Part shown: one piece after another, positions 32,995-49,136 of the stretch
How positions within the stretch are numbered: the stretch's first letter is position 1
Layout of the letters: every line of letters starts with the position of its first letter
DNA from: Thermoplasmata archaeon
GTDB taxonomy: Archaea; Thermoplasmatota; Thermoplasmata; RBG-16-68-12
Reading direction: 5' to 3'
Assembly (NCBI GenBank): GCA_035557795.1
Contig: DATMDM010000166.1
Span: forward strand, 2,735-66,734
Length of the DNA stretch: 64,000 nucleotides
The notes under the pieces: generated by a model
What the model was told of the DNA's origin: nothing
Databases searched by the model: none
The model's input: the letters and a program-made list of their open reading frames with translations, nothing else
Program-made: the position numbers and the translations under genes

Positions 32995-33018
32995 CGCACA
33001 CGTTCTTATAGGCTCGTC
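32995..33018 (+). promoter_or_regulatory. Putative TATA/BRE for the heme operon (cacgttcttataggctcg)
   Basis: AT-rich TATA-like element ~30 bp upstream of the hemA start, in an otherwise GC-rich spacer. Confidence 0.3.
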
Positions 33019-33041
33019 GGGTCGGACCTGTCGCGAGGCCG

Positions 33042-34328
33042 ATGAGTCGCGAGGCGCTTTCATCTCCGGGTCCTTCTGATGGGGTCACCCCCCCGGTCGC
33101 GCTACACCTCCTCGTAATCGGCACAAACCATCGCACCTCGAGCCTCGACGTGCGCGAGCGGCTACTCGGCAAAGCCTCCTATCCGTCGCTTCGGAAGGCC
33201 GGCGGACGCACCAGTCCCTGGTCCGACCTCGTCCTGCTGACGACGTGCAACCGAGTCGAAGTATACATGCTCACGGAGGCCCCTCGACGGGCCTGCGAAG
33301 CCGTTCTGAGAGCCCTCGGCGTCTCCGAGGACGAGCATCTACTGTACGTCCTCGAAGACCGCGATGCCGCGGCGCATCTTCTGCGCGTCGCCAGCGGTCT
33401 GGACTCGCTTGCCGAAGGCGAAGAGCAGGTGGCCGCGCAGGTCCGGAACGCCCCACGACAGCGACCGGCCCGGGCCTCGGCAGGCGGGCCCCTGGCCGAT
33501 TTATTCCTTCACGCCGCCCGGAGCGCTTCCCGGATCCGGAAACTCGCGGGCGTCTCAGTCGCCGACGCGTCCGCGAGTCACGCCGCCGTTCGATTCCTCG
33601 AGGCCGTCGTTCCGGTCGAGAATCGAATCGTCGCACTGATTGGGACAGGGAAGATGGCACGCATCGCGGCGAAGAGTCTCCGGCCGCGCGCCGAGATCCG
33701 CATCCTGAATCGGAATTTCGCGCGGGCCCGCGAGCTGGCAGAAGCCCTTGGCGGGAAGGCCGTCCCGCTGGCGGATCTTCGGAAGGTTCTCACCGAAGCC
33801 GATATCGTCCTCGCCGCGACCGCGGTCCGACACCCGCTCCTCACCGCGCAGACGCTCTGCACTGCAATCCGTCGACGCGAGGGTCGCCCGATCTGGCTCA
33901 TCGACCTTGGGTTTCCCCGGAACGTCGATCCGAGCTGTCGCACCCTCGCGGGCGTTCACGTGGTGGATTTGGATGGACTCGCGCCCTGGGGTCAGCGTCC
34001 TCCGTCACCGAGCGCCCAGGCCCGGGTCGAGCACCGAATCCGGGGGGAGGCGGAACGCATGATCGAATCGTTGCGCCCGGCCGCGTCGGTGGACATTGCC
34101 GTCCTCAGACGCAAGGCGGAAGCGGTCCGGCGGCACGAGGTGGAAACGACGTTGGCCCGACTCCCGGATCTCTCCGAGGGAGATCGCGCCGTCGTGGACA
34201 AGCTCGCGACTCGTTTGGTGAACCGGTTCCTCCACGGTCCCACCGAACGCCTACGCTCCCTCCCCGAGGGGACACGCACGGAAATCGTCCGGCAGATTGT
34301 CGAGAGCCTCCAACGAGGTCCTGGATGA
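33042..34328 (+). CDS. hemA: Glutamyl-tRNA reductase
   Basis: TCNRVE catalytic Cys motif, NADPH-binding GTGKMA, C-terminal dimerisation helix. 428 aa. Confidence 0.85.
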   Translation: MSREALSSPGPSDGVTPPVALHLLVIGTNHRTSSLDVRERLLGKASYPSLRKAGGRTSPWSDLVLLTTCNRVEVYMLTEAPRRACEAVLRALGVSEDEHLLYVLEDRDAAAHLLRVASGLDSLAEGEEQVAAQVRNAPRQRPARASAGGPLADLFLHAARSASRIRKLAGVSVADASASHAAVRFLEAVVPVENRIVALIGTGKMARIAAKSLRPRAEIRILNRNFARARELAEALGGKAVPLADLRKVLTEADIVLAATAVRHPLLTAQTLCTAIRRREGRPIWLIDLGFPRNVDPSCRTLAGVHVVDLDGLAPWGQRPPSPSAQARVEHRIRGEAERMIESLRPAASVDIAVLRRKAEAVRRHEVETTLARLPDLSEGDRAVVDKLATRLVNRFLHGPTERLRSLPEGTRTEIVRQIVESLQRGPG

Positions 34329-35245
34329 CTCCGTCCTTGCGGGCCGGCACTCGGGGGAGCCCGCTCGCGATCGCCCAGGCGGACGAAGTGGTGGTACGAC
34401 TCCGGACGATCCGGCCCGGCCTCCGGACGGAGACCGTCGTGATCCGGACCCATGGGGACGAAGGATATCGAGAGGACTTGGGAACGGCCCTCGACGGCAA
34501 GCGGGCCTTCACGAAACGCATCGAGGACGCTCTCCTGGAGGAGCGCATCGACTTCGCGGTCCACAGCCTGAAGGACTTGCCGACCGAAACCGCGACCGGA
34601 CTCGTCATCGCGGCGATTCCGCCGAGGGAGGATCCGAGAGATGCCCTCGTCGGCCGACGCCTGATGACTCTCGACGACTTGGGTCCGGGCGTCCGCGTCG
34701 GCACGAGCAGCCTCCGTCGGCGCGCGCAGCTCTTGTCGCAACGGCCCGGCCTCGAGGTCATCGCTCTCCACGGGAACGTGAATACCCGTCTGCGCCGACT
34801 CGACTCGAACGACTTCGACGCCGTGGTTGTCGCGGCCGCGGGCATGCGCCGACTCCACATCGATGACCGGTTCGCTCACCCGCTGTCGCCGGACGTGATG
34901 ACCCCCGCCCCCGGTCAGGGCGCGCTCGCCCTGGAGGCGCGAAAGGGCGACCGTCCGGTTCTCGACCTGTTGTCCGCGATTGACGACCCGAGTGCCCGCC
35001 GCACGACCGAGGCGGAGCGGGCCCTCGGCGCCCGTGTTGGCGGCGGATGCAACATCCCCTTCGGAGCGCTCGCCACGGTTGAGGGCGGCATGCGTCTTCG
35101 CGCCGTGCTTGCAGACCCGGAGGGTCGCCGCATCATCCGATCCGAGGATCGAGGCGACGCGTCTCGCTGGAAGGAAATCGTTGACTCCGTGTGGGCAAAA
35201 CTCGTTCAACAAGGAGCGGCCGACCTGGTCGCCGAGGCGGCGTAG
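34325..35245 (+). CDS. hemC: Porphobilinogen deaminase (hydroxymethylbilane synthase)
   Basis: GTRGSPLAIAQA N-terminus and the cofactor-binding Cys region (GGGCNIP). The ATG overlaps the hemA stop (ATGA). Confidence 0.85.
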   Translation: MTPSLRAGTRGSPLAIAQADEVVVRLRTIRPGLRTETVVIRTHGDEGYREDLGTALDGKRAFTKRIEDALLEERIDFAVHSLKDLPTETATGLVIAAIPPREDPRDALVGRRLMTLDDLGPGVRVGTSSLRRRAQLLSQRPGLEVIALHGNVNTRLRRLDSNDFDAVVVAAAGMRRLHIDDRFAHPLSPDVMTPAPGQGALALEARKGDRPVLDLLSAIDDPSARRTTEAERALGARVGGGCNIPFGALATVEGGMRLRAVLADPEGRRIIRSEDRGDASRWKEIVDSVWAKLVQQGAADLVAEAA

Positions 35246-36013
35246 ATGGACGACCTCCCGTTTCGCGGCCAGACGTTCCTCGTCGCAACCTCGGAAGACC
35301 TCGCCGACAAAGTCGCTCGTGCGGTGCGGGAGAGAGGAGGCCGCGCAATTCCATTCCCAACGATTCGCCTGGTTCCACCGGCGGACTACGAGAACCTGGA
35401 CCGCGGGCTTCGCCTCTGGCGGACGTTGGATTGGGTGGTCTTCACGAGTGCCCACGGCGTCGAGGCGGTCGTCGACCGGTCGAGGGCCTTAGGCGTGGAC
35501 TTGGCCGGCTTCCAGGGAAAGGTCGCGGCCGTAGGCCCCGCGACAAAAGCGGCCGCGGAGGCAGCGGGCCTGGCCGTGTCCTTGGTCCCGAACGAATTCC
35601 TGACCGATGCCATCGCGGGTGCGCTCGGCGACGTGTGCGGGCGAACGATCTTCCTGCCCCGCTCCCGGATCGCGCGGAAAAGCCTCGCGGACGAGCTGCG
35701 GGATCGAGGTGCGCAGGTCATCGAGGCGGATGCATACGACGCGATCCCGGCCGCGCCGGACATCGACGTTCTCCGGAAGACGGACCGGATCGATGTCGTG
35801 CTGTTCACGAGCGCGTCCGCGGCGACTCATCTAATGGACCTTCTTCCGAAAGACGTGCGGGACCGGTTGATCAAGGAGGCCGAGGCCGCGTGCATTGGAC
35901 CGGTCACCGCGCAGGCCGCACGTTCTCTCGGGTTCCGAGTTTGCGCGGTCGCGCGCAACCATACGGTCGACGGACTCGTCGAAAGCTTAGAGGAGGTTCG
36001 TGCCAATGGCTGA
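35246..36013 (+). CDS. hemD: Uroporphyrinogen-III synthase
   Basis: HEM4-like two-domain protein of 255 aa. Consistent with its position between hemC and hemB. Confidence 0.7.
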   Translation: MDDLPFRGQTFLVATSEDLADKVARAVRERGGRAIPFPTIRLVPPADYENLDRGLRLWRTLDWVVFTSAHGVEAVVDRSRALGVDLAGFQGKVAAVGPATKAAAEAAGLAVSLVPNEFLTDAIAGALGDVCGRTIFLPRSRIARKSLADELRDRGAQVIEADAYDAIPAAPDIDVLRKTDRIDVVLFTSASAATHLMDLLPKDVRDRLIKEAEAACIGPVTAQAARSLGFRVCAVARNHTVDGLVESLEEVRANG

Positions 36014-36998
36014 GCTCCCGCGTCCCCGCTATCGGCCCCGACGGTTGCGGAGGACCGCCGCCATCCGTGCGCTCGTCCGAGAGACGTCCGTCGACATCGA
36101 TCGTCTCGTGCAACCGCTCTTCATTCGGGAGGATCCCCGCATGGGGTCGGCGATTCCCTCCATGCCGGGCATCTTTCGACTGACGATGGACGAGGCCGCG
36201 TCCGAGGCGGAGCAGCTTGCGGAACTTGGCGTCCCCGCCGTGATCCTCTTCGGCCTCCCGGCGGAGAAGGATTCGCTCGGCCAGGGAGCGTACGACGAAA
36301 GCGGCGTCGTGCAGCAGGCCGTCCGTGCGGTGAAGAGGGCAACCCCGGATCTCATCGCGATGACGGATGTCTGCCTCTGCGAATACACCGACCACGGGCA
36401 TTGCGGCGTGGTCCGGGATGGTCGAATCGACAACGACGCGTCCCTCGAACTGCTCGCCAAGACGGCCGTGAGCCAGGCACGCGCGGGCGCCGACCTCGTG
36501 GCTCCAAGCGCGATGATGGACGGCCAGGTCGGCGCCATCCGCGCGGCCTTGGACCGCGAAGGATTCGAGGAGACGGCGATCCTCGCGTACGCAGCGAAGC
36601 ACGCCTCCGCGTTCTATGGCCCGTTCCGAGACGCCGCCGATTCCGTCCCCCGGTTCGGCGACCGCCGCACCTACCAGAAGGATCCTGCGAACCTGCGCGA
36701 GTCCCTCCGCGAGATCGCTCTCGACCTGGAGGAAGGTGCGGACATCGTGATGGTCAAGCCCGCCCTCGCATACCTGGACGTGATTCGCGCGGCGCGCGAA
36801 CGGTTTGACGCGCCGCTTGCCGCGTATTCCGTGAGCGGAGAGTACAGCCTGATCAAGGCGGCCGCGGAACGGGGATGGGTCGACGAACGCTCCGTGGTCG
36901 AGGAGACGATCACCGCAATCCGTCGCGCGGGCGCGGACCTCATCCTGACCTATTACGCGAAGGACTTCGCACGATGGCGGCGGGAGAGACGCGCATGA
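36000..36998 (+). CDS. hemB: Porphobilinogen synthase (ALA dehydratase)
   Basis: Active-site Lys regions and the CEYTDHGHCG metal-binding Cys cluster. 332 aa. Confidence 0.85.
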   Translation: MPMAELPRPRYRPRRLRRTAAIRALVRETSVDIDRLVQPLFIREDPRMGSAIPSMPGIFRLTMDEAASEAEQLAELGVPAVILFGLPAEKDSLGQGAYDESGVVQQAVRAVKRATPDLIAMTDVCLCEYTDHGHCGVVRDGRIDNDASLELLAKTAVSQARAGADLVAPSAMMDGQVGAIRAALDREGFEETAILAYAAKHASAFYGPFRDAADSVPRFGDRRTYQKDPANLRESLREIALDLEEGADIVMVKPALAYLDVIRAARERFDAPLAAYSVSGEYSLIKAAAERGWVDERSVVEETITAIRRAGADLILTYYAKDFARWRRERRA

Positions 36999-37732
36999 CG
37001 GAGCCGACTCAGGGGCAAGGATCCGACGAAACCGGGGAGGCGGGAGAATCCCGCGAGTTCCTCAAGTACACGTTCTACCAGGTCCGACCCGAATGGCGGC
37101 TGCTCGACTCGGAGCGGAAGAAGAAACAGAAAGCGGAGTTCGCCTCGCTCCTCCATGATCTCGAGGAAGACATCACCCTCTGGTGCTACTCCCTTCAAGG
37201 GATCCGGGCCGACGTGGATTTCATGGTCTGGGCGATCGACCCGCACCTCGAGACGTTACGGGAAATGGCCCGTCGAGTCTCATCGACGGAACTCGGCCAT
37301 TACCTCGAGACGACGTATGCATATCTCGCCGCGAGCAAGCGGTCCCAATACACAGGCGGCCACACCCACAAAGGTCAGGACGGTCTCGCCATGAAATCGG
37401 AGCCGCACGGTAGCCGCTACCTCTTCGTCTATCCGTTCGTGAAGAAGCGGGAGTGGTACTCGATTCCCTTTGAACATCGGCAGGAGATCATGCGGGATCA
37501 CTTCCGCATCGGCCACAAGTATCCCGACGTCAAGATTCACACGGCCTATTCGTTCGGGCTCGACGATCATGAGTTCGTTTTGTCCTTCGAGGCTGACAAT
37601 CCACTCGACTTCCTCGACCTCGTGATGGACCTCCGCTCGAGCGAGGCGAGCAAGTACACGGAGCGGGAGACGCCGATCTTTACGTGCATCCTATCCACGC
37701 CGGAGCAGATGCTCGACGCCCTGGGGATTTGA
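36995..37732 (+). CDS. Chlorite dismutase family protein (HemQ/ChdC-like, putative coproheme decarboxylase), operon copy
   Basis: EWYSIPFEHRQEIMRDHFRIGHKYPDVKIHTAYSFGLDDHEFVLSFEADN fits the Cld/HemQ pattern. The ATG overlaps the hemB stop. Confidence 0.6.
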   Translation: MTEPTQGQGSDETGEAGESREFLKYTFYQVRPEWRLLDSERKKKQKAEFASLLHDLEEDITLWCYSLQGIRADVDFMVWAIDPHLETLREMARRVSSTELGHYLETTYAYLAASKRSQYTGGHTHKGQDGLAMKSEPHGSRYLFVYPFVKKREWYSIPFEHRQEIMRDHFRIGHKYPDVKIHTAYSFGLDDHEFVLSFEADNPLDFLDLVMDLRSSEASKYTERETPIFTCILSTPEQMLDALGI

Positions 37733-37733
37733 C

Positions 37734-39047
37734 ATGGGATTCACAGCCTCCGGGGCGCTGAGCGCGCCGGAGTCGGAGAAGCTTTTCGGGCGGGCCCAAG
37801 AGAGCCTCGTTGGCGGAGTCGACAGTCCGGTCCGTTCGTTTCGATCCGTCGGCGGAACCCCGCGGTTCGTTGTTCGCGGAAACGGCGTAACCCTATGGGA
37901 CGCAGACGGACGCCGGTATCTTGATTTTTGCATGTCGTGGGGCGCTCTTGTACTCGGTCACGCGAATCCCTCCGTCGTCCGCGCCGTCCGCAGTGCCGCG
38001 GGCCGCGGGATGAGCTTCGGGGCCGCGACGGAGTCGGAGGTCCGCCTGGCCGAAGAAGTGAAGCGACGGTTCCCGAGCATCGACCTGCTCCGCTTCGTCA
38101 ATTCGGGAACGGAGGCCACGATGTCCGCCGTCCGCGTGGCTCGCGGCTTCACGGGTCGCGACAAGATCGTCATGTTCGAGGGGGCATACCACGGACATGC
38201 GGACGCCTTGCTCGTGAAAGCCGGTTCCGGGCTGGCCGCCGCGAGTTTGCCGGGTTCCGCGGGCGTCCCCGACAACGCGGTGCGGGACACGTTGTTGGCG
38301 CAGTACAACGACCTCGCTTCCGTGGAGGGTCTCTTCCGCAGCTACGGGGATCAGATTGCGGCCGTCTTGGTCGAGCCCATCGCCGGGAACATGGGCGTTG
38401 TCCCGCCGGATCCCGATTTCCTCGAAGGCCTCCGCCGGATGACTCGGGAGTTCGGCAGCCTGCTCGTCTTCGATGAGGTCATCACGGGCTTTCGGGTTGC
38501 GCCGGGCGGTGCCCAAGAGAAGTACGGCGTCGCGGCGGACGTCACCTGTCTGGGGAAGATCCTCGGCCACGGCATGCCCCTCGGGGCCTACGGAGGGCGG
38601 CGGGACATCCTCGAGATGGTCGCCCCGCTCGGCCCGGTGTACCAGGCGGGGACCCTCGCCGGGAACCCGATGGCGATGGCGGCCGGCCAAGCGACCATGA
38701 GTCAGCTGCGCCCCAGCCTGTACGCGAGTTTGGAGAAGCGCAGCGCTCAACTCGAGACGGGGCTCCGGGATGCGGCCGACGACGCGGACATGGAGGTGCA
38801 GGTGCCGCGCGTCGGATCGATGATGGGCATCTTTTTCCGGCCCGAGCCCGTCCGGAACTACCGCGACGCGCAGGCGATGAACAAGACCACGTATGGGCGC
38901 TTCTTCTGGGCTCTGCTGAAGGGCGGTGTGTACTTTCCGCCCGCTCCGTTCGAGAGCTTCTTCCTATCCTCGTCGCACCGTAAGCCGGAGGTCGAGCGGA
39001 CGATTGAGGCGGCCGCGGCCGCGCTCCGGGAGGTCCGGAATTCTTGA
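37734..39047 (+). CDS. hemL: Glutamate-1-semialdehyde 2,1-aminomutase
   Basis: Class-III aminotransferase with the GSA-AM N-terminus (SPVRSFRSVGGTP) and PLP-Lys region. 437 aa. Confidence 0.85.
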   Translation: MGFTASGALSAPESEKLFGRAQESLVGGVDSPVRSFRSVGGTPRFVVRGNGVTLWDADGRRYLDFCMSWGALVLGHANPSVVRAVRSAAGRGMSFGAATESEVRLAEEVKRRFPSIDLLRFVNSGTEATMSAVRVARGFTGRDKIVMFEGAYHGHADALLVKAGSGLAAASLPGSAGVPDNAVRDTLLAQYNDLASVEGLFRSYGDQIAAVLVEPIAGNMGVVPPDPDFLEGLRRMTREFGSLLVFDEVITGFRVAPGGAQEKYGVAADVTCLGKILGHGMPLGAYGGRRDILEMVAPLGPVYQAGTLAGNPMAMAAGQATMSQLRPSLYASLEKRSAQLETGLRDAADDADMEVQVPRVGSMMGIFFRPEPVRNYRDAQAMNKTTYGRFFWALLKGGVYFPPAPFESFFLSSSHRKPEVERTIEAAAAALREVRNS

Positions 39048-40069
39048 ACGATCGTTTCCTGCGTGCGTGCTGGCGCGAGCCCGTGGACTGCACCCCGGTC
39101 TGGTTCATGCGTCAAGCCGGTCGGTCCTCCCCGGCCTACCGGGCGATCCGCGCGAAGCACGGTATCTTGCAAATCGCAAAGTCGCCGGACCTGGCCGCCG
39201 AGGTGACCCTCCAGCCCCTCCGGGAGCTCGGGGTGGACGCCGCGATCGTGTTCGCGGATCTCCTGTTGCCGGTCGAGGCGATGGGCATCCGGGTGCGGAT
39301 CGACGCCGGCGAGGGTCCGATCCTCGAGCCCCGCATTCGCACCTCCGAAGACGTCGACCGATTGAAGCGGCTCGATCCCGTGAGAGACATGCCGTTTGTC
39401 TTCGAGACGATTCGACGCGTACGAGCCATGGCGGCGGTCCCTTGCATCGGATTCGCCGGCGCGCCGTTTACCCTGGCGAGCTACCTGATCGAAGGCGGGT
39501 CCTCCCGGGATTTCCTCGCGACGAAGTCGTTCATGCATGCGCATCCTGCCGACTGGCGGCGGTTGATGAACTTCCTCGTCGATGGGATGGCCACGTACCT
39601 TCGGGCCCAGGTCGATGCCGGCGCCCAAGCCCTCCAACTGTTCGACAGCTGGGCCGGCGCGCTGAGCCCCCGCGAATATGATGAGAGTGTGTCTCCGTTC
39701 ACGCGCCGCCTCTTTCACGAAATCTGCGAGACGGGAGTCCCGTGCATCCATTTCGGCACGGGCACATCCGGATTTCTCGAATCCTTTGCCGCGGCGGGAG
39801 GGGACGTCGTTGGCGTGGACTGGCGGATTCCGATCGATACCGCTTGGCGGCGGATTGGCGAGGACCGGGGAATTCAAGGCAATCTGGATCCGGCCGCCCT
39901 CCTCGGCCCGGCGGACGTTTGGCGGCCGGCGGCCCAGGACGTGTTAGACCGGATCGGGAACCGTACCGGCCATGTGTTCAATCTGGGCCACGGAGTCTTG
40001 CCGGAGACGCATCAGGACGAGTTGCGAGCGCTCGTGGGGCTCGTCCACGAGTCGACTCGGCGGGGATGA
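39044..40069 (+). CDS. hemE: Uroporphyrinogen decarboxylase
   Basis: PVWFMRQAGR URO-D signature. 341 aa. Confidence 0.85.
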   Translation: MNDRFLRACWREPVDCTPVWFMRQAGRSSPAYRAIRAKHGILQIAKSPDLAAEVTLQPLRELGVDAAIVFADLLLPVEAMGIRVRIDAGEGPILEPRIRTSEDVDRLKRLDPVRDMPFVFETIRRVRAMAAVPCIGFAGAPFTLASYLIEGGSSRDFLATKSFMHAHPADWRRLMNFLVDGMATYLRAQVDAGAQALQLFDSWAGALSPREYDESVSPFTRRLFHEICETGVPCIHFGTGTSGFLESFAAAGGDVVGVDWRIPIDTAWRRIGEDRGIQGNLDPAALLGPADVWRPAAQDVLDRIGNRTGHVFNLGHGVLPETHQDELRALVGLVHESTRRG

Positions 40070-40079
40070 GGAGGCCGTC

Positions 40080-41063
40080 ATGTCGAGAATTTCCGAGGAC
40101 GAACGGACGGCCGTCCTGTTGACGGCCGTAGGGGGACCCAACTCGCTCGATGAGGTCGGTCCGTTCCTTCTCGACGTGCGCGGGGGACGGCCGACGAGCG
40201 AAGAACTCATTGATGAATTCCGCGAGCGGTACCGCCGAATCGGCGGGAAATCACCGCTCCTGGACATTTCGCGGGCCCAGGCCAACGCTCTTGAAGACCG
40301 CCTGAACGGCGACGACCGGGCAACTTACCGGTGCTACGTCGGCATGAGGAACTGGCGACCATACATCCGGGATGTGATCACGGAAGTCGTCGCGGACGGC
40401 GTGGACCGGCTTGTCGTCCTGCCGCTGACGCCGTACTACTCCCGTAGGAGCGTGGGGGCCTATTTCGCCGCCGCCGACGCCGCGCTTTCGACGGTCGCCC
40501 GGCGGCCAGATGTGGCATATGTCGAGAGTTGGAACACGGAGCCTGCGCTAATCGGCATGTTCGCGGCGAAGGTCCGGGAGGGTCTCGAGCTCCTCGCACA
40601 GAGGAGTTTCCACGCCCCAATCGTCGTGTTCACCGCCCACAGCCTCCCAAAGAAACTCATCGACGGAGGGGACCCGTATGAACGGGAACTGTCCGAGACG
40701 ATGGCCCTCGTGCTCCGTCGACTGCCGTCTTTCCGGGCTCGGATGGCGTGGCAGAGTGCGGGCCGAACTGACGAGGCATGGCTCGGACCTCCGCTTGAGG
40801 AAGTCTTGGAGGAGATCGGAAAGACCGGTGAGAAGGCCGTGCTCGTGGTTCCGTTCGGATTCGTCTCGGACCATTTAGAAATCCTGTACGATGTGGACAT
40901 CGAGGCTCGGGCATTCGCTTCGGAGAGAGGTCTTCAACTCGAACGCACGGACTCGCCGAACACGGACCCGGGTTTCATCGACGCGATGGCTGCCGCGGTG
41001 CGGTCCGCCGGCCGTCCTTCCTCGAGGTCGCGTTCTGGCGAATCGCCAGCGCCGGTGCTTTAA
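40080..41063 (+). CDS. hemH: Ferrochelatase (HemH/CpfC type)
   Basis: Ferrochelatase fold motifs (LLTAVGGP, FTAHSLP, PFGFVSDHLE). Starts at internal M37 of the listed ORF. Confidence 0.8.
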   Translation: MSRISEDERTAVLLTAVGGPNSLDEVGPFLLDVRGGRPTSEELIDEFRERYRRIGGKSPLLDISRAQANALEDRLNGDDRATYRCYVGMRNWRPYIRDVITEVVADGVDRLVVLPLTPYYSRRSVGAYFAAADAALSTVARRPDVAYVESWNTEPALIGMFAAKVREGLELLAQRSFHAPIVVFTAHSLPKKLIDGGDPYERELSETMALVLRRLPSFRARMAWQSAGRTDEAWLGPPLEEVLEEIGKTGEKAVLVVPFGFVSDHLEILYDVDIEARAFASERGLQLERTDSPNTDPGFIDAMAAAVRSAGRPSSRSRSGESPAPVL

Positions 41064-41180
41064 GGCTCGGCTCCATGTGGCGGGGTCGGGGCGAGACGGG
41101 CGGACGCACCCAAGCCGAAGGCACACGGGCTCCCGAAGAATCGTCTCGAGACCCTAATCGACGGAGTCTTCGCCATCGCA

Positions 41181-41741
41181 ATGACGATCCTCGTCTTGGA
41201 GCTCCGCGCTCCCGCGACGCTCGGACCGCAGGGCTTGGCGGGAGGTCTGGTCGGGCTGTGGTCTCGGTTCGCGACATTCTTCATCAGTTTCATCGTCCTA
41301 GGGGTCTATTGGTTCGCGAACCACCAGGTGTTCCACTTCGTGTTGCGCGTGAACCGCACCCTGGTGTGGCTGAACGTTCTGTTCCTCATGGGCATCGCCC
41401 TCATCCCGTTCGCCGCCTCCCTGATGGGCACATATCCCCAAGACCCGATTGCCTTGAGCCTCTACGGCGCAGTCCTGGGTCTGCTGGCTGCCCTCGGCTA
41501 TGTGATTTGGTGGTACCTGACCGGAGACCGGGGCCTGATTGAACCGGGCCTCGACCCGGAGCTGGTCCACAAGGTGCGCGTCTGGCTCGCGATCGGCCCC
41601 GTGATCACCCCGGTGGCCATCGCGGTCTCCTTCGTGAACACGACGGTCGCCTTGCTCATCTACCTGGCCCTCCCGGTGGTTTTCATTTTCTTCAATCCCG
41701 TGAGCCGATACCTCGAGCGTCTCCGCGAGACGGAGCCTTGA
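41181..41741 (+). CDS. TMEM175/DUF1211-family membrane protein (putative K+ channel); N-terminus unresolved
   Basis: The conserved first-helix motif RLETLIDGVFAIAMTILVLEL is encoded in frame just upstream (41142..41180), but there is no ATG, GTG or TTG after the stop at 41061. An ATG at 41075 lies in another frame. Confidence 0.5.
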   Translation: MTILVLELRAPATLGPQGLAGGLVGLWSRFATFFISFIVLGVYWFANHQVFHFVLRVNRTLVWLNVLFLMGIALIPFAASLMGTYPQDPIALSLYGAVLGLLAALGYVIWWYLTGDRGLIEPGLDPELVHKVRVWLAIGPVITPVAIAVSFVNTTVALLIYLALPVVFIFFNPVSRYLERLRETEP

Positions 41742-41817: not shown

Positions 41818-42774
41818 TCAGAGGGAGATGGACTTGCCGATTCCCCGGTCGCGTGCGCGCTCGTACACAAGCGCAGCCGCCGCGACATCCTCAATCGCGA
41901 TCCCGTGAGATTTGAACAACGTGATGTCCTCGGCGTTCGTCCGCCCCTGGATTTTTCCCGCGACGACTTCGCTGATTTCGTGGACGCGGTCCCACGTGAT
42001 CAGCCCGCGTTTCATCGGCTCGACGAGGTCGCCGCTCTCCTCTTTGGCCTGTTCAATCGAATCGGTTGCCACGAACGCACATCGACGGACCGCGGCGTCA
42101 TCGAGCTCGCGAGTCTCGAGTCGGTTCGCTCCGATGGCGTTGATGTGACATCCCGCGCGCAGCCAATCTCCGTGGATGACCGGTTGAGGCGCGTTCGTCG
42201 CCGCGATGACAACGTCGGCGTCACGGATCGCCTCTTCGGCCGACCTCGCCCCTTCGACATTCACCCCGAGGACGGAGGACATCTTCTCCGCGAAAGCTTC
42301 GCGATGTGCCCGGTCCCGTCCGGAGCAGCGGATTCGCTGGATGGAGCGGACCGCGCAGACCGCCTCCAGCTGGCTCTCGGCCTGCCATCCCGTACCGACG
42401 ATGCCGACAGTCGATGCATCGGATCGCGCGAGATACCTCGTCGCGACTCCGGAGGCTGCTCCAGTGCGCCGCTGTCCAAGTCGGTCGGCCTGAATCACGG
42501 CGACAAGCTCGCCGGTCGCCAGGTCGAACAGGTGGACCCAAAAGCGAATTCCCGCGCGAGACGCCGTGTAATACTTGAACCCGGCATAGCCCCGCCCCGG
42601 CCAAGACGCGAGCATCACGTTGACCGCGGTCTCTGCTGTTCCGACTCGCTGCCGCGGGCGGTTCGTTGCCTCGCCTCTCCCCAAAGCCCGGAATCCTTCC
42701 TCGACCACCTTCAACGCATCGTCCATCCGGAGGAGGCCATCGACGTCCTGTTCCGCCAGGAGCAACGCAGTCAT
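41818..42774 (-). CDS. Ornithine cyclodeaminase/mu-crystallin family protein
   Basis: 318 aa. GIVGTGWQA Rossmann motif and OCD-family layout. Confidence 0.75.
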   Translation of the reverse strand: MTALLLAEQDVDGLLRMDDALKVVEEGFRALGRGEATNRPRQRVGTAETAVNVMLASWPGRGYAGFKYYTASRAGIRFWVHLFDLATGELVAVIQADRLGQRRTGAASGVATRYLARSDASTVGIVGTGWQAESQLEAVCAVRSIQRIRCSGRDRAHREAFAEKMSSVLGVNVEGARSAEEAIRDADVVIAATNAPQPVIHGDWLRAGCHINAIGANRLETRELDDAAVRRCAFVATDSIEQAKEESGDLVEPMKRGLITWDRVHEISEVVAGKIQGRTNAEDITLFKSHGIAIEDVAAAALVYERARDRGIGKSISL

Positions 42775-42873
42775 CCAACGCCTCGTATCCGGAAGACACT
42801 TATTTCATTACTTGGGCGCTCACTCGCCACGGCGCCGGAAGTTTGCGCAACCGATGGGCCGGCCCACTCTGGC

Positions 42874-44340
42874 TTAGGAGATTCTTACCTTTGCGAAACG
42901 GAGTAAGTCGGCCACCGAGAACTCGCCATCCCGAGGCGCGCCGAATTCCCCGCCCTTCGGCTGCCACATCGGCTGGACGCTCAAGAACGACGACGGATCT
43001 CCTCGGATGAGGCCGATGATGACCTCCGCGACGATGCGGCCACCGACCGGGCCCAGTTTCTTCCCGTGGCTCAGGGCCTCCGCCTCCTTGAGGACGTAGA
43101 AGAACAGTGGGGTGTCCTTTCCGAACGCTTTGATCAGGTCCGGGGGAAGCGGCTTCAAGTCGTCTCCGCGCAAGATGAGGTCGTCCGGGATCCCCATCGC
43201 GCGGGCGACCGATTGGCCGGAAGGGAGGCCGAGCGCTTTGCCGCGCTTCAGATCCCGCTCCGCGAGCGCGGCGATTCCCTTCGCCACGCTCTCCGGAAGT
43301 TCGCTGAGGCCGAACGCGAGCTTCGTGTCAATCCGGCGCGAGGGTTGGACGTCGAGGTTCGCTCCGGAGAACTCAAAGAATCGCGCCCATTGGATCACGT
43401 GTCCCTCGGGCAGCTCGCGGAACCCCCGAAGGTCGGGCTCCGGAGGCTTTGCGAAAATCGGGACGTCCTGCACCTCGGCGTTCAGTTCGTACTCGCCCCG
43501 GACCATGCTGTGCCCGAAGCGATACGCGGCGATGGAGAACTCGACGGGCATGAAGGGGCGGTGCTTCCAGGCGAAGAACTTCAGGACGACCTTGACGGTC
43601 TTCACGGTCTTCTTTCCGCGGTCCGTGGGAACGGTGAATGCATCGGGCTGGAGCACGTCGCGGATGACTTCGTCCCCGACCAGCCGCCTCAGGAAGTCGT
43701 GGACGACAGTCCACTGAAAATGCCATCGGACGATCCGCCGGGCCTCGTCGAATCGCTCCCGCGCGGGCGTCTCGGCCAAGGCGTCGACCACTTGGTTGTG
43801 ATACTTCAAGAACCCGAGCGCTAGCTGCGAGACAATCAGGTTCTCGTCGTTCCTCGGATCGCCGAGGAGTGCCCGCCCGTTCGTGTTCCGGGGCAGGTCG
43901 TCGTCTCCCTCGGCGTTGCGGCCGATGAGGAGATGGACGCCGTCCCGATCGTACACGAAGGGGACATCGTCGGGACCGCGTCCGTACACGGAATCGAGAT
44001 CGAGCCGCGGCGTCCGAAAATCCGTCAGTGCGTCCGGGTCGTTGTCGCGCTGCAGCTGCGACGTCGGGTCGAAGGTGAGGTCGTGGTCCACAAACTGGCC
44101 GAAATAGGTGAACCCCGCCGGAATGTCCGGATTGTCTCCGCTCGCATCCTCCACCCCCGGTTTCGGCTCCGGCTCGACCATCTGCTTCGCGAGCTTGCGG
44201 AGGGCCGCATCCGGTGGAAGGGAAGGCGACAGGTTGCGGAACATCCGCCCGAAGCGACCCTCGAACATCGCGGACCGCACGACGATGCTGAGACCGCGCT
44301 GTTCGGTTCCGTGGAAGTTCTGTTTGGTCACCGAATTCAC
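42874..44340 (-). CDS. Animal-type heme peroxidase (peroxidase-cyclooxygenase superfamily)
   Basis: Distal-His motif GFTYFGQFVDHDLTF and LGDPRNDENLIVSQLALGFLKYHN region characteristic of An_peroxidase domains. 488 aa. Confidence 0.6.
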   Translation of the reverse strand: MNSVTKQNFHGTEQRGLSIVVRSAMFEGRFGRMFRNLSPSLPPDAALRKLAKQMVEPEPKPGVEDASGDNPDIPAGFTYFGQFVDHDLTFDPTSQLQRDNDPDALTDFRTPRLDLDSVYGRGPDDVPFVYDRDGVHLLIGRNAEGDDDLPRNTNGRALLGDPRNDENLIVSQLALGFLKYHNQVVDALAETPARERFDEARRIVRWHFQWTVVHDFLRRLVGDEVIRDVLQPDAFTVPTDRGKKTVKTVKVVLKFFAWKHRPFMPVEFSIAAYRFGHSMVRGEYELNAEVQDVPIFAKPPEPDLRGFRELPEGHVIQWARFFEFSGANLDVQPSRRIDTKLAFGLSELPESVAKGIAALAERDLKRGKALGLPSGQSVARAMGIPDDLILRGDDLKPLPPDLIKAFGKDTPLFFYVLKEAEALSHGKKLGPVGGRIVAEVIIGLIRGDPSSFLSVQPMWQPKGGEFGAPRDGEFSVADLLRFAKVRIS

Positions 44341-44552
44341 CTGCGAGAGAGGGGCGTGATGCTAGTTCCGCGGTGGTGGGGCAAGGACTGGCGTGCTGTT
44401 CGAGGAGAAGCCGATCCAGAGAGGTGCGACGAGCGAGTCGGTCGCCCGTGGGGATGCGCCTCGTACGGCGACGGTCTGAGGGGACATCGCGGCCGTATCC
44501 AGCAACGCCTATTTGATGGCTTTTGACAACCAATCGTCCCGCGGCGGGACTC

Positions 44553-45125
44553 TTACGGCGAAAGTCGTTCGGTCGCACGCCAGCGCACATCGGGTGTCGA
44601 ATTCGGCCTTCGCACGATCGAGGCCGTCACGAACATCGCGCCGCCGAATTCTCGCTCGTCGAGGATCTTGATACGTCTCGGAAGGAACCGGTAGAAGGCG
44701 TAGGATCGGAGGAGTGCGGCTTGCCGACGCTCGGCGAGGCTCAGCCCCTTCATCCACTTCCCGTACGGCGAGAATCTCGCCCCGTACGCGCGTTCCGCTT
44801 CCCTCGCCCCGCGTCCGTGGGTTCGTCGACAGCGGCCGAACAGCTGGAGTCCTCGATCCGGACCTCCCCATTCTTGAGTCGATCGGAAAATCGTCATCGC
44901 CAGGGATGGGTTTTGTTCGAGATTCCGACCATGCCGCGACTCGGGGTCGGAGAGGAAATACAACTCGAGGTCGGGCGTGCAGCAGAAGTACGCCGTGTTG
45001 ATGTGCGCTCGACCGTCCGGCGCGACCGTCGACATCGAACAGAGCACATTTTCCCGAAGGATCCGGAAGATGCTCCGTCGAATCCGGTCGGCCGAGAAAC
45101 GCTTGTCGATGGGTTGGACCGTCAT
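44553..45125 (-). CDS. Pyridoxamine 5'-phosphate oxidase-like FMN-binding protein
   Basis: Only the C-terminal 190 aa of the listed 366-aa ORF (from MTVQPIDKRF) looks protein-like, with a PNPOx split-barrel pattern. The upstream part is GC junk. Confidence 0.55.
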   Translation of the reverse strand: MTVQPIDKRFSADRIRRSIFRILRENVLCSMSTVAPDGRAHINTAYFCCTPDLELYFLSDPESRHGRNLEQNPSLAMTIFRSTQEWGGPDRGLQLFGRCRRTHGRGAREAERAYGARFSPYGKWMKGLSLAERRQAALLRSYAFYRFLPRRIKILDEREFGGAMFVTASIVRRPNSTPDVRWRATERLSP

Positions 45126-46768
45126 CGGCCCTCCCCGTGCCGGAGGACCTGCCCGGACAAAGCGCCCGTCGGCCGGCCCATTTCCACCGCGACGGTCCCG
45201 TTCACCAGGACCCAGTCGATTCCCTCCGGGTATTGATGAGGATAGTTCTCGAACGGATAGGTATGGGGCCACCGGTTCGTCGCGCGGTCCCGAACACGCG
45301 TCAAGTCGAAGACGACGAGATCGGCCCAGAACCCGGGTCGAACGAGGCCGCGGTCCCCGAGTCCAAGCCGCGAGGCCGGCAAGGCCGTCATCTTGCGAAT
45401 GGCCTCTTCGAGCCGAAGCACGCTCTCGTTCACGACGAACCGCTCGATGACGCCGGGGAACTCGCCGTACGTGCACGGCTGGTAGGGCGCGGTGGGCGAG
45501 GTGCGCTCCTCCTTCGGCGCGACCCAGCCGTCGGAACAAATCATCACGAGAGGATGCCGCAAGGTCGACTTGATTTCCTCCGGGTCCATGTAGTCGAACA
45601 GGCCCACCGCCCGGTCTCGCTCCTCGACGATCATGTCGAAGTATGCGGTCCACGGATCAACGCGGCGCTGCTTCGCAAGCTGTGCGATTGTCTTTCCTTC
45701 CTTCGAAGAATCTTCCGGGCAACGTAAGAGCCAGATTCGATCGAATTGTTCGTGAACCAGCAACCCGACGTATCCGGCGCCGGGACGCTTGTCCGCTTGA
45801 ATTTCCGCTTTCAACGCCTCCCGTTTCGCGGGTTGCCGCAGCAATCCGAGGAGTTCGTCCGTCGGGAGCTTCTGGGTCCACTGCGGAAGCGCGTGACTCA
45901 GGGGAGGCCCGAAGTCCGTGTGCACGTCGTTGTCCGCGAGGACGTCCACGCCGCGCGCCCGGGCGGCCTCCCACAGCGCCTGGATTTCCTTCGCCTTCCC
46001 GATGCCGCCGTACTTCGGATTGTTGTGACTGATCTGGACCGGACAGCCGGCCTGCTCGCCGATCTCGATGCATTCCCGGACCGCGTCGACAATCGTCTCC
46101 CGCTCGCCCCGGATGTGAGACGCGTAGAAGCCGTGATGACGCGCGACGACTTTGGCGAGCACGACAATCTCCTCCATCGCCGCGAAGCATCCCGGGGGGT
46201 AGACAAGGCCGGTGCTCATCCCGAAGGCGCCCGCGCGCATCGCCTCATCGACATGATTCTTCATCGTGCGCGTTTCTTCCGGAGTCGGTGGTCTCTCCTC
46301 GAAGCCCATCGTCGCGAGCCGCACGCTCCCGTGGCCGACGAGGCCCGCGATGTTGATGCCGACACCATGGTGGGCCATGAAATCGAGGTATCCCCCGTAC
46401 GTCGACCAATTCCAATCTTTCGCCTGCGCGTAGTACTCGAACCGCCGGACCGCGAGCTCGCGGTATCGCTCACCGATCGGCGCAGGCGAGTCGCCGCAGT
46501 TCCCGATCACATGGGTCGTCACGCCTTGGCGGACCGCGCACTCCGCCGTGGGCTCGACGAGGATTCCGATATCGCTGTGCGTGTGGATGTCGATGAAGCC
46601 GGGGGCGACAAAGGTCCCCGAGGCATCGATTGCGCGGTCGCATTTCGCACGCCCGAGGGGGCCCACGCGTGAGATCTTCCCTCTGCGGATTCCGATATCC
46701 GCGACGCGCCACGCGGAGCCCGTTCCGTCGAGGACGCGCCCTCCCCGGATGACGATGTCAAACGCCAT
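45122..46768 (-). CDS. N-acyl-D-amino-acid deacylase (D-aminoacylase) family amidohydrolase
   Basis: IDIHTHSD metal-binding motif, HVIGNCG, and the composite fold. 548 aa. Confidence 0.75.
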   Translation of the reverse strand: MAFDIVIRGGRVLDGTGSAWRVADIGIRRGKISRVGPLGRAKCDRAIDASGTFVAPGFIDIHTHSDIGILVEPTAECAVRQGVTTHVIGNCGDSPAPIGERYRELAVRRFEYYAQAKDWNWSTYGGYLDFMAHHGVGINIAGLVGHGSVRLATMGFEERPPTPEETRTMKNHVDEAMRAGAFGMSTGLVYPPGCFAAMEEIVVLAKVVARHHGFYASHIRGERETIVDAVRECIEIGEQAGCPVQISHNNPKYGGIGKAKEIQALWEAARARGVDVLADNDVHTDFGPPLSHALPQWTQKLPTDELLGLLRQPAKREALKAEIQADKRPGAGYVGLLVHEQFDRIWLLRCPEDSSKEGKTIAQLAKQRRVDPWTAYFDMIVEERDRAVGLFDYMDPEEIKSTLRHPLVMICSDGWVAPKEERTSPTAPYQPCTYGEFPGVIERFVVNESVLRLEEAIRKMTALPASRLGLGDRGLVRPGFWADLVVFDLTRVRDRATNRWPHTYPFENYPHQYPEGIDWVLVNGTVAVEMGRPTGALSGQVLRHGEGR

Positions 46769-46844: not shown

Positions 46845-46863
46845 AACCTTGTTTAAGGTTAAC
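46845..46863. promoter_or_regulatory. Palindromic motif AACCTTgtttAAGGTTAAC, copy 2 (see 4279..4300)
   Basis: 19 nt identical to the 4282..4300 core. Also lies in a divergent intergenic region. Confidence 0.45.
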
Positions 46864-46953
46864 AATTCTGGCGCGGCCATTCTCGTTCCATGGCCTCGTC
46901 TTTCATTGCCGCATCCGAGAACGTTCCATCTGTTGCGCGAAACCGTTTATAGT

Positions 46954-48351
46954 ATGCGAGCGTTCGAGCGCCGACTTATCGATATCATGCAATCGTGGGA
47001 GGAAGAACTCCAAGCGTTTCGCCGGCGGACGAAGAAATCCGCGCAGGCGTGGGAGGCCGCGAAGAAGCGGATCCCCTTCGGGGTCAACAGCAACTACCGT
47101 CTCGTCGATCCGTACCCGCTATACGTTCGCAAGGCGAAAGGCTCGCGGATTTGGGATGCGGACGGAACGGAATACATCGACTTCTGTATGGCCTTCGGCG
47201 CACTGGTCGCAGGTCACAGCCACCCGGTCCTCGCGAAGGCGATGCGGGAGCGGGTGTCCAACGGCACGATCTTTGGTTTCGAGTCGGTCGACGCGGGCCC
47301 ACTCGCGGACCACATCTGCCGGCGGTTCCGGTTGGACCGCCTCAAGTTCTCGATGACGGGCCTCGATGCGACGTTGTTCGCGGTTCGCCTCGCTCGCGCG
47401 GTCACCGGTCGCCGCCGGATCCTGAAATTCGAAGGCTGCTACCACGGATCGCACGACGCTCTCATGGTGTCAATCAAACCGAAGAAAGAGGACTCCGGAG
47501 ATCGAAGGCGGCCGAACCCGGTGCCGTCGTCGAAGGGCCTCCTGCCGGAACTCGTGCAGACCGCGGTCGTCGCGCCGTTCAACGACCTCGCGGCGACGGA
47601 GGCCCTGGCCAACGAGTACGCCGACGACATTGCGGGGATCATCCTCGAGCCTGTGCCGATGAACATGGGCTACGTCCCGCCGAAACCGGGATTCCTCGAA
47701 GGGCTCCGGAAGATCGCGAGTGAGATCGGCGCGCTCCTGATATTCGACGAAGTCAAGACGTGCGGCAAGTGGTACGGCGGGGCGGAGGAGGCGTTCGGCG
47801 TCACCCCGGACCTCAAGGTGCTCGGGAAGGCGATCGGCGGCGGATTCCCGCTCGCCGCCGTCGGCGGATCGAGGTCGATCATGGACCAAGTGGTCCCGGG
47901 TCAGATCGGCCACGCGGGGACGTTCAACGCGAATCCGCTCAGCATTTCCGCGGGGCTCGTGACGATGACGAAGATCCTGACGCGGGCCGGAATGCGTCAC
48001 GCGCAGCAGATTGGCGACGATCTCGCCAAAGGCTACCGCGACATCAGCGGAGACCACGGCCTCGAGATGGTCGTCCAGGCCGGCGGGATCAGCGGGACCG
48101 TGCATTTCGCCCGCCGAGCGGTGACGGATTGGCGGTCGTTCCAAGATGTCGACGTGGGCCGGTGGTGGGGCTACTACACCGCGATGCTGAACCGCGGAAT
48201 CATCCCGATGGCCACGGGCCCGGACGAGCAGTGGACATCCTCCGTCGCGCACACGAAGGCGGACGTCTCGCGGCACCTCGACGCCTTCGAGGACGTCGCG
48301 GAGAGCATGAAACGCGGTCGGGCCGAGATGTCGCTCGTCGAGGCGGTCTGA
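46954..48351 (+). CDS. Class-III aminotransferase (GSA-aminomutase-like paralog)
   Basis: DGTEYIDFCMAFGALVAGHSHP...FEGCYHG...LIFDEVKT. Trimmed to internal M (MRAFERR). Confidence 0.7.
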   Translation: MRAFERRLIDIMQSWEEELQAFRRRTKKSAQAWEAAKKRIPFGVNSNYRLVDPYPLYVRKAKGSRIWDADGTEYIDFCMAFGALVAGHSHPVLAKAMRERVSNGTIFGFESVDAGPLADHICRRFRLDRLKFSMTGLDATLFAVRLARAVTGRRRILKFEGCYHGSHDALMVSIKPKKEDSGDRRRPNPVPSSKGLLPELVQTAVVAPFNDLAATEALANEYADDIAGIILEPVPMNMGYVPPKPGFLEGLRKIASEIGALLIFDEVKTCGKWYGGAEEAFGVTPDLKVLGKAIGGGFPLAAVGGSRSIMDQVVPGQIGHAGTFNANPLSISAGLVTMTKILTRAGMRHAQQIGDDLAKGYRDISGDHGLEMVVQAGGISGTVHFARRAVTDWRSFQDVDVGRWWGYYTAMLNRGIIPMATGPDEQWTSSVAHTKADVSRHLDAFEDVAESMKRGRAEMSLVEAV

Positions 48352-48548: not shown

Positions 48549-49136
48549 TTATCGGCGTTCCATCAGGATCGACCAGGCCAGAGGCCGGAAGTCTTCACGG
48601 TCGAGCGTGAACCGGAACTCGTGTGCCTCGAGGATCTTGAAGAGCGGTCCCAGCTCGGTCCGGAATTCCTCCTCGGTCACGACCGGCGGACCGTTGACCA
48701 TCGGCTCTTTGGCGTTCCCCGCGAGGGTCAACCAACGCGTGCCTTTGCGGGTGACGCGTTCGAGCATCTTGAGGAACGCCGTGAGGTTCCCGTTGCGAAT
48801 GCCGTGATAGACGCCTCGGTCGAACACCACTTCGTAGGGTCCGCCGAGATCCATCCGGGTCGCGTCTCCGACGCGAAAGTCAATCTCGATTCCCGCCTTC
48901 CATGCTTTCTCCCGCGCCCGCCGCACCGCCAGCTCGACGTAGTCGACCGCGGTCACCCGATATCCGCGGCGAGCGAATGCGATGGCGTTGGTCCCCGTGC
49001 CACATCCGATCTCGAGAACTGTTTTCCCAGACAACAATCCAGCGTCAGGAACGCGGATTAGTTCCGCGCTCGGCACGCCGGAATCCCATGGGGTGTCGCC
49101 GGTCCGGTATGATTCTTCGAATTCGTCGCCACTCAT
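48549..49136 (-). CDS. Class I SAM-dependent methyltransferase (TPMT/TehB-like)
   Basis: VLEIGCGTGTNA motif I. 195 aa. Confidence 0.65.
   Translation of the reverse strand: MSGDEFEESYRTGDTPWDSGVPSAELIRVPDAGLLSGKTVLEIGCGTGTNAIAFARRGYRVTAVDYVELAVRRAREKAWKAGIEIDFRVGDATRMDLGGPYEVVFDRGVYHGIRNGNLTAFLKMLERVTRKGTRWLTLAGNAKEPMVNGPPVVTEEEFRTELGPLFKILEAHEFRFTLDREDFRPLAWSILMERR

Follow-up and report, generated by a model that had tools for sequence, protein, structure and literature searches.

A putative cytoplasmic heme peroxidase of the peroxidase-cyclooxygenase superfamily in soil Thermoplasmata is separable from the adjacent heme operon

Work on the peroxidase-cyclooxygenase superfamily has centred on animal innate immunity; little is understood of its prokaryotic roots, and only a few enzymes from bacteria (LspPOX, CyanoPOX) have been studied. 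Its signatures are -X-G-Q-X-X-D-H-D-X- and -X-R-X-X-E-X-, the distal Ca2+ site is not fully conserved in the ancestral families, family 5 consists of putative proteins only, with a physiological role called 'completely unknown', and no archaeal member has been described there (PMC4420034). In CyanoPOX (Cyanobacterium sp. TDX16, PDB 8S6C), a single-domain bacterial enzyme of ~520-556 aa, roles have been assigned to the distal His81, the ester-forming Asp80 and Glu202, Arg199, the proximal His294, Asn376, the propionate partners Arg291 and Arg379, and the Ca2+ ligands D82, T140, W142 (backbone O), D144 and S146 (PMC11776367). Iodide is its best substrate and aromatics are also oxidised; Asp and Glu are present, yet the heme is non-covalent in the protein as purified, and Ca2+ occupies the equivalent loop (PMC11776367). 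Here we describe a relative of these enzymes in a 64,000-nucleotide stretch of Thermoplasmata archaeon DNA (assembly GCA_035557795.1, contig DATMDM010000166.1, positions 2,735 to 66,734; hereafter the window). The gene occupies 42874..44340 on the minus strand, exactly where an earlier sequence-only reading had placed it, and encodes a single-domain protein of 488 aa with a GTG start and no signal peptide. We judge it likely that the product is a soluble cytoplasmic heme peroxidase of soil Thermoplasmata, gained once from bacteria, with later inheritance and recombination inside the group and a history apart from that of the heme operon nearby.

Homology was assessed by sequence searches, alignments, an AlphaFold2 model, Foldseek and a neighbour-joining tree. 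The open reading frame (ORF) matched the Pfam hidden Markov model An_peroxidase (PF03098) with 66.9 bits (E 1.8e-18; gathering cut-off 25), over an envelope of aa 109-374 (profile positions 150-408 of 530) that leaves out the distal-His motif. No NCBIfam model matched. Searched singly with phmmer against PDB, the protein returned marginal matches only (rice fatty acid alpha-oxidase, E 0.066, and kinase noise). We aligned it with 41 homologues at 54-88% identity (alignment A1, 42 sequences) and searched all PDB sequences with the resulting family profile. The top match was CyanoPOX 8s6c (E 2.4e-10), followed by lactoperoxidases (LPO), myeloperoxidases (MPO), eosinophil peroxidase and Dictyostelium DdPoxA, and the alignments took in the segments with the distal motif, the Arg/Glu pair, the proximal His and the Asn/Arg pair. 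The AlphaFold2 model, for which A1 served as input, had a mean predicted local distance difference test score (pLDDT) of 79.6 and a predicted template modelling score of 0.83. Foldseek found 51 PDB matches to this model at E <= 1e-3, and the 50 of 51 listed were all superfamily members. The best was again CyanoPOX 8s6c (E 3.5e-12, template modelling (TM) score 0.53 over ~493 columns, 19% identity), ahead of MPO, LPO, DdPoxA, DUOX, alpha-dioxygenase and COX. With the catalytic core intact as well, these results confirm the peroxidase-cyclooxygenase homology that had been proposed from the letters of the sequence, and we regard the assignment at superfamily level as secure.

Residue conservation was counted in A1 and in 215 full-length relatives (archaeal-clade and other rows summed). 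The distal motif GQFVDHDLTF (aa 81-90; 44071..44100, minus strand), located in the translation and in A1 and correctly picked out by the sequence-only reading as the distal-His motif, is paired in the alignments with GQFLDHDL in 8s6c and with GQIVDHDL in LPO. In register with G76-Q77-F-L-D80-H81-D82 of CyanoPOX, the GQF(V/I)DHD core supplies the halide-binding Gln (Q82), the ester-forming Asp (D85), the distal catalytic His (H86) and a Ca2+ ligand (D87) (PMC4420034). The motif was invariant in 42/42 sequences and its residues were kept in 205-213 of the 215 relatives. Downstream lies the candidate Ca2+-binding loop TPRLDLDSVYG (43981..44013, minus strand), with T110, R112 (backbone O), D114 and D116 as ligands in a register inferred from the motif. 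It follows the T-x-X-x-D-x-S pattern of CyanoPOX T140/W142(O)/D144/S146 (T-x-W/F-x-D-x-S in LPO), and T110, D114 and D116 were invariant in 42/42 and near-invariant across the 215. Together, D87 and T110-P-R-L-D114-L-D116-S-V-Y-G would by sequence form a complete Ca2+ site.

The remaining catalytic residues were located in three further segments, all on the minus strand. The distal Arg/Glu helix RNDENLIVSQLALGFLKYHN (aa 163-182; 43795..43854) holds the catalytic R163 and the second ester-forming residue, E166: GDPR163-N-D-E166 matches GDVR199-S-N-E202 of 8s6c, and the equivalent LPO and MPO segment aligned too. N167 replaces the Met of MPO, and H181-N182 are conserved. This helix contains the string RNDENLIV...YHN, which had been read as the proximal-His region. 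The string is present but does not have that role: it aligned to R199/E202 of CyanoPOX and to the LPO/MPO counterpart. The proximal His lies instead in AAYRFGHSMVR (43498..43530), where Y273-R274-F-G-H277 corresponds to Y290-R291-V-G-H294 of 8s6c; H277 is the predicted heme ligand and R274 a predicted propionate partner, and each was found in 215/215 relatives. Segment LAERDLKRGKALGLPSGQ (43213..43266) carries position 363, the putative H-bond partner of the proximal His, and R366; its R-(N/D)363-L-x-R366-G corresponds to N376...R379 of 8s6c, with R366 matching the propionate partner R379 of CyanoPOX. Among the 215 relatives Q82 was kept in 213, H86 in 212, R163 in 214, H277 in 215, D85 in 205 and E166 in 203. 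Within A1, Q82, D85, H86, D87, T110, D114, D116, R163, E166, R274, H277 and R366 were invariant (42/42). Both sets of residues that the sequence-only reading had wished to see checked are thus present: D87/T110/D114/D116 for Ca2+ binding and D85/E166 for covalent heme linkage.

Set beside the described members, the window protein most resembles CyanoPOX, its best match by profile and by fold. The two share GQFxDHD, R-x-x-E, Y-R-x-G-H, the N/R pair and the Ca-loop pattern T-x-X-x-D-x-S/D, and differ in their low structure-based identity (19%) and in carrying Asn376 (CyanoPOX) or Asp363 (window protein). LPO and MPO, of family 1, have the same fold, distal Gln/Asp/His/Asp, Arg/Glu, proximal His and Ca site. 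They are, however, secreted, glycosylated proteins of 595-745 aa, compared with 488 aa and no signal peptide here; identity is 16-18%, Asn stands in place of Asp363, and the sulfonium-forming Met of MPO is N167 in the window protein. The hallmarks of the chordate MPO/LPO/EPO/TPO family, secretion and the MPO Met sulfonium link, are therefore both absent. LspPOX (Lyngbya sp. PCC 8106), short peroxidockerins (family 6) and short peroxicins (family 5), compared by description, are short bacterial members with the full peroxidase signature. DdPoxA (Dictyostelium, PDB 6ERC) has the same superfamily fold and is eukaryotic. Long peroxicins such as the Mn-oxidising MopA belong to the same superfamily but are very large multidomain proteins with hemolysin-type Ca repeats (PMC4420034). 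The window protein has a single domain, with 488 aa and one Pfam family match, unlike the MopA type with its repeated peroxidase domains and hemolysin-type / PERCAL Ca motifs.

Some of the matches pointed elsewhere, towards a fatty-acid dioxygenase or cyclooxygenase-like enzyme of the alpha-DOX / COX / LDS branch that would oxygenate lipids via a tyrosyl radical. The rice alpha-oxidase was the best single-sequence PDB match, alpha-DOX and COX structures stood among the Foldseek matches listed (E 1e-4 to 1e-6), and one bacterial homologue (contig L014) is encoded near a lipoxygenase gene. Against this, G-Q-x-x-D-H-D and R-x-x-E are invariant in the peroxidase family, a signature that family 4 lacks (PMC4420034). 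The family profile also ranked LPO-type enzymes first, and alpha-DOX dropped out. Family 4 has a catalytic Tyr three positions ahead of its proximal His (Tyr385 and His388 in COX), whereas that place is taken here by an invariant Arg274, which LPO and CyanoPOX share. Archaeal membranes are moreover isoprenoid-based, which makes fatty-acid substrates unlikely. We therefore hold a dioxygenase to be very improbable and retain the assignment as a peroxidase.

The most distinctive residue is that at position 363. In superfamily families other than 4 and 7 the proximal His is H-bonded to Asn; the window protein has Asp instead, as do 28 of the 30 sequences in the clade that holds all identified archaeal sequences (see below), compared with Asn in 172 of the 185 remaining family members. 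The two most basal members of that clade, P0024 and P0027, retain Asn. Loss of the canonical Asn could be taken as a sign that the gene is a decaying, non-catalytic relic of a horizontally acquired one, and two further observations are compatible with decay: the peroxidase is the second most divergent gene of its neighbourhood between close genomes, and no TATA-like element was evident in the 212-bp spacer upstream of it. But the Asn to Asp exchange appears conservative in keeping an H-bond acceptor, the catalytic residues are each kept in 28-30 of the 30 archaeal-clade sequences, and six related contigs carry an uninterrupted ORF. Comparison with four orthologues gave a ratio of nonsynonymous to synonymous divergence (dN/dS) of 0.11-0.17 and a dS of 0.58-0.84. 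The peroxidase is more diverged than its neighbours between close genomes because dS is high, and not because constraint is relaxed; as judged from these ratios the gene is under purifying selection. A relic is thus extremely improbable, and a working peroxidase remains our reading.

The sequence-only reading had called for a signal-peptide prediction. By Kyte-Doolittle hydropathy, no hydrophobic N-terminal or internal segment was seen in any of the 42 A1 proteins: the highest 15-residue mean (starts in the first 45 residues) was <= 1.3 and the highest 19-residue mean anywhere <= 1.66. No twin-arginine motif was found at the N-terminus. The family thus appears cytoplasmic, unlike the animal enzymes. 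Residues 1-35 (window 44236-44340) carry a conserved motif of their own, FHG (H10 and G11 in >= 90%) followed by RGL...EGRFGRMF. This FHG...RGL...EGRFGRMF region could not be aligned to CyanoPOX, had no counterpart in alignments to the other solved peroxidases, and fell below pLDDT 50 in the model.

From homology to LPO, CyanoPOX and LspPOX we infer the following mechanism. Heme b would be bound through H277, its imidazole polarised by Asp363 where other members use Asn. The distal His86 would be kept in position by a structural Ca2+ with D87, T110, the R112 carbonyl, D114 and D116 as ligands. Because the LPO-type catalytic set is complete (Gln, two ester carboxylates, His/Arg, Ca site), H2O2-driven Compound I chemistry is predicted, in which heterolytic cleavage of H2O2 by the H86/R163 pair would generate Compound I. 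D85 and E166 are placed for autocatalytic ester bonds to heme methyl groups, as is typical of the superfamily, so that the heme is possibly covalently linked. Compound I might then be reduced by a small donor, either iodide, bromide or thiocyanate via Q82, or aromatic/organic one-electron donors. Because the family is without export signals and without a conserved gene partner, the likeliest role would be that of an enzyme acting on its own within an aerobic soil cell, consuming H2O2 or carrying out oxidations. The predicted cytoplasmic location leads us to favour H2O2 removal or oxidation of small intracellular donors over antimicrobial hypohalite production.

To place the protein among its relatives, we scanned 1.84 billion cluster representatives (50% identity) with HMMER. 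It returned 7552 clusters at E <= 1e-3, of which 5152 reached E <= 1e-10 and 2134 reached E <= 1e-30. All of the top 150 had E < 1e-89, mostly at 45-59% identity. Such numbers for this subfamily alone contradict the view that these peroxidases are sporadic in prokaryotes. The labelled relatives at ~60% identity belong to Blastocatellia, Pyrinomonadaceae and Thermoanaerobaculia (all Acidobacteriota), with Dehalococcoidia at 57%. More distant full-length, stand-alone homologues labelled 'heme peroxidase family protein' (32-42% identity, 85-98% query coverage) are found in the cultured bacteria Gemmatirosa kalamazoonensis, Rhizobium, Microvirga, Sinorhizobium meliloti pSymA, Salinibacter ruber and Nostoc. 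The closest archaeal proteins are already annotated publicly as 'heme peroxidase family protein [Thermoplasmata archaeon]'. In our literature searches, no publication on peroxicins or on PF03098 proteins of archaea came up, and no relevant mention of peroxidases in the Lutacidiplasmatales paper.

Orthologues at 79-90% identity are present in five species-representative genomes (L001-L005), all soil metagenome-assembled genomes named Thermoplasmata or Methanobacteriota archaeon, and one at 99% identity on the ENA contig L006. These names, together with a tRNA-Pro of 96 nt, mark the host as archaeal. ARAGORN reported this tRNA-Pro(TGG) at window 2268-2363, and the Rfam tRNA model left it unreported at gathering score; its length fits an intron-containing archaeal tRNA. 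In a neighbour-joining tree of the 215 full-length sequences, the window protein fell in the 30-sequence clade mentioned above (100/100 bootstrap), which holds every sequence tied to archaea: the L001-L006 orthologues, P0012, P0013, P0017 and P0024. The phylogeny that the sequence-only reading had proposed as a check therefore gives a single archaeal clade, and the rarity it had supposed for archaea is plausible, all identified archaeal sequences lying in this one clade among the relatives sampled. The adjoining group contains Acidobacteriota-labelled proteins. As the precise sister group was not reproducible in bootstrap, we claim only that the nearest relatives include Acidobacteriota proteins. 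One old transfer from a bacterium to an archaeon is the probable origin, because diversity is far greater outside the archaeal clade and the labelled members there are bacterial. Within the group, the peroxidase looks vertically inherited, because the peroxidase on contig L010 (68% identical) and an unrelated gene shared with that contig (66%) are similarly diverged. The latter encodes a DsbA/Thioredoxin_5-S-adenosylmethionine (SAM) methyltransferase fusion of 563 aa (window 18168-19859, minus strand; L010 5735-7405), which in L010 lies 2.6 kb from the peroxidase homologue.

Several results weigh against this account. The PF03098 envelope excludes the distal-His motif, the distal motif alone gave weak profile-alignment scores against PDB proteins (0.7-6.4 bits), and identity to any characterised enzyme was 12-19% (Foldseek against PDB). 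The AlphaFold2 model is of low confidence at residues 1-31, 92-111 and 262-273, which adjoin the Ca loop and the proximal His, and the Foldseek TM-scores were ~0.5 over ~500 columns with root-mean-square deviations of 8-11 A. The tree was rooted at its midpoint and bears few taxon labels; the exact sister set of the archaeal clade had 1/100 bootstrap, so that donor and direction rest on diversity only. Finally, a cytoplasmic generator of hypohalous acid would be self-toxic, and halide oxidation may not be the physiological reaction.

The position of the gene beside a heme operon had suggested that a heme enzyme and the means to make its cofactor were acquired together. The operon, hemA-hemC-hemD-hemB-chdC(hemQ)-hemL-hemE-hemH, was identified with Pfam and NCBIfam at 33042..41063 on the plus strand (hemA 33042-34328; hemH ends at 41063). 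UroD, ferrochelatase and ChdC/HemQ mark it as coproporphyrin-dependent, and neither the operon nor the ORFs scanned showed a CgoX/HemY gene. Archaea are usually described as using the siroheme (Ahb) route, from which this operon departs, as it does from the situation in Haloferax, which is without uroD, cgoX and cpfC (PMC5746218). Because 124 bp of the chdC ORF coincide with the end of hemB, the true start of chdC is probably later. The hemH stop codon, TAA (41061-41063), falls inside a CTTTAAGG element (window 41050-41075) just upstream of the TMEM175 gene; this element also occurs in operon-less genomes, so that the last ~11 codons of hemH would come from operon-independent sequence. Three paralogous class III aminotransferases resembling glutamate-1-semialdehyde aminomutase are encoded within 14 kb (37734-39047, 46849-48351 and 50566-51957). 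Of these, the first belongs to the heme operon; the remaining two lie outside it and fall below the hemL equivalog cut-off, and one of them also resembles GntE-type transaminases.

Beyond hemH, the gene order is a TMEM175-family channel gene (41181..41741, plus strand; Pfam TMEM175 on the identical L006 protein), an ornithine cyclodeaminase / mu-crystallin (OCD) gene (minus strand) and the peroxidase (minus strand), an order conserved in L002 and L003. The description 'three genes downstream of the heme operon' therefore holds as a position only. The peroxidase is convergent to the operon, on the opposite strand, and co-transcription with it is impossible because the strands converge. Joint arrival of the peroxidase and the coproporphyrin-type operon as one horizontally transferred cassette, enzyme with cofactor supply, would explain why no more than 2 kb separates them in the window and in L002 and L003, and a heme enzyme does need heme. 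The operon also resembles a mobile or acquired segment: the whole of it lies in a variable segment of 8.1 kb (~32,896-41,030) that begins ~280 bp past a tRNA-Val gene and is present in the window, L002 and L003 but absent at this site in L005 and L001. Reading the junctions, we saw no direct repeats or integrase at the operon boundaries. In L005 (2150-2750) and L001 (11500-12000) the tRNA-Val/small-ORF region (window 32497-32838) runs straight into the TMEM175 flank (from window 41028). Yet both of these genomes, operon-less at the site, carry OCD and the peroxidase.

Sequence divergence separates the two loci further. Between the window and L002/L003, dS was 0.02-0.08 for hemL, hemE and hemH and 0.11-0.21 for flanking genes, as against 0.58-0.77 for the peroxidase, an approximately ten-fold difference in synonymous divergence between peroxidase and operon; the corresponding nucleotide identities were 96-99% for heme genes and 81-86% for the peroxidase. 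Base composition, considered as a mark of recent transfer, proved uninformative: GC content at third codon positions (GC3) is 0.83 in the peroxidase, typical for the window, and 0.74-0.82 in the heme genes, also inside the window range. Relatives of ChdC form a dense series from 97% to 55% identity, of which the three named ones (67-82%) are all Thermoplasmata or Methanobacteriota, with Thermoplasmata labels down to 67%; the peroxidase, by contrast, belongs to a small archaeal clade whose next relatives include Acidobacteriota-labelled proteins. Because the ChdC series is dense and its named members are archaeal, we take the heme pathway to be deeply established in this archaeal group. No heme genes were found within 8-10 kb of the archaeal peroxidase homologues at 68-73% identity (L010, L012, L013), and aerobic soil Thermoplasmatota require heme for their terminal oxidases in any case (PMC9287336). 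With the TMEM175 gene also intervening between two loci on opposite strands, we find transfer as one cassette very unlikely. Co-acquisition with the heme operon is not supported; from these comparisons, the peroxidase and the operon appear to be neighbours with different histories.

The peroxidase instead shares its divergence with the genes on its own strand. Next to it lie the OCD gene (41818..42774, minus strand; Pfam OCD_Mu_crystall, 246.8 bits; NCBIfam matches all below cut-off), 99 bp downstream, and a gene for a 190-aa PNPOx-like split-barrel protein (44553..45125, minus strand; Pfam PNPOx_N), 212 bp upstream. The start of the latter is overlapped by 4 bp by an Amidohydro_3 (D-aminoacylase-like) amidohydrolase gene (45122..46768, minus strand). 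Nucleotide identity between the window and L003 was 96-99% in the heme genes and 94-96% in the TMEM175, aminotransferase and methyltransferase flanks, and fell to 88.6% in OCD, 80.7% in the peroxidase, 69.8% in PNPOx and 80.9% in the amidohydrolase. Across this block (41818-46768) dS against L002/L003 was 0.2-1.3, PNPOx being the fastest-diverging gene in the region (dS 0.85-1.33; 58-78% aa identity between close genomes). The window peroxidase is nearer to that of L001 (84.9% nucleotide identity) than to that of L003 (80.7%), and the flanking genes show the reverse order. This disagreement on the closest genome, with the mosaic of dS values, suggests recombination or allelic exchange of the OCD-peroxidase-PNPOx-amidohydrolase block, and perhaps that the operon has spread recently.

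The block could also be a functional unit. The four genes might serve oxidation of a dedicated organic substrate (e.g., an amino-acid-derived metabolite), or the PNPOx-like protein might be a HutZ-like heme-handling partner of the peroxidase. In L001-L004 and L006 they follow one another on a single strand; they are more divergent than their flanks, as if exchanged as a block; two of them, amidohydrolase and PNPOx, overlap; in L012 an OCD gene again lies two genes away from the homologue; and the sole PDB sequence match of the PNPOx-like protein is HutZ (3tgv), which binds and degrades heme. That match is marginal, however (E 0.009). L010, L012 and L013 have no PNPOx beside the peroxidase, and the bacterial homologues stand alone in unrelated contexts. 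Gaps of 212 bp and 99 bp flank the peroxidase, and OCD has an AT-rich promoter-like upstream element of its own. The neighbourhoods of the homologue differ in L007, L008, L010, L012, L013, L014 and L016, and across ten homologue contexts no gene partner was conserved beyond the closest relatives. On this ground we dropped assignment of function from the gene neighbourhood as the main explanation, and consider a four-gene cassette unlikely; the stand-alone peroxidase is preferred.

Other features of the window and of the related contigs were recorded. A small SAM methyltransferase is encoded at 48549-49136 (minus strand; Pfam TPMT, the thiopurine / halide-thiol methyltransferase family, 48.6 bits, also TehB). 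A halide link through this TPMT-like protein was rejected: its NCBIfam matches are generic and below cut-off, it lies 4 kb off behind a divergently oriented aminotransferase gene, and it does not share the divergence pattern of the block. On the bacterial contig L014 (11310-14713), a 62%-identical homologue is 2-5 kb from the lipoxygenase gene and from a second An_peroxidase gene (623 aa), with IS110- and rve-type transposase genes nearby. A 732-aa ORF in the window (10995-13193, plus strand) has a coding-like GC3 of 0.75 and no Pfam match at E <= 1e-5.

What is new here is an archaeal, Asp363-bearing member; the superfamily itself was already known. No current concept is changed, and annotation pipelines already use 'heme peroxidase family protein'. 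We entertain, as a tentative and rather doubtful extension, that this is the first recognised archaeal lineage of 'animal' heme peroxidases, within a large (>7000 clusters) cytoplasmic subfamily bearing an N-terminal FHG...EGRFGRMF module, and that the archaeal Asn to Asp switch makes a functionally distinct peroxidase and not a copy of bacterial LPO. If so, the resulting His-Asp pair, as known from plant and fungal peroxidases, could shift redox potential and reaction type away from halide oxidation. The locus represents a conserved, selected member in soil Thermoplasmata of a large signal-less and uncharacterised prokaryotic subfamily. It offers a concrete target for studying the microbial role of a cytoplasmic 'LPO-like' enzyme, and structure and function can be compared in a naturally occurring Asn-to-Asp proximal variant. 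The gene also joins terminal oxidases among the oxygen-related functions apparently gained from bacteria by terrestrial Thermoplasmatota.

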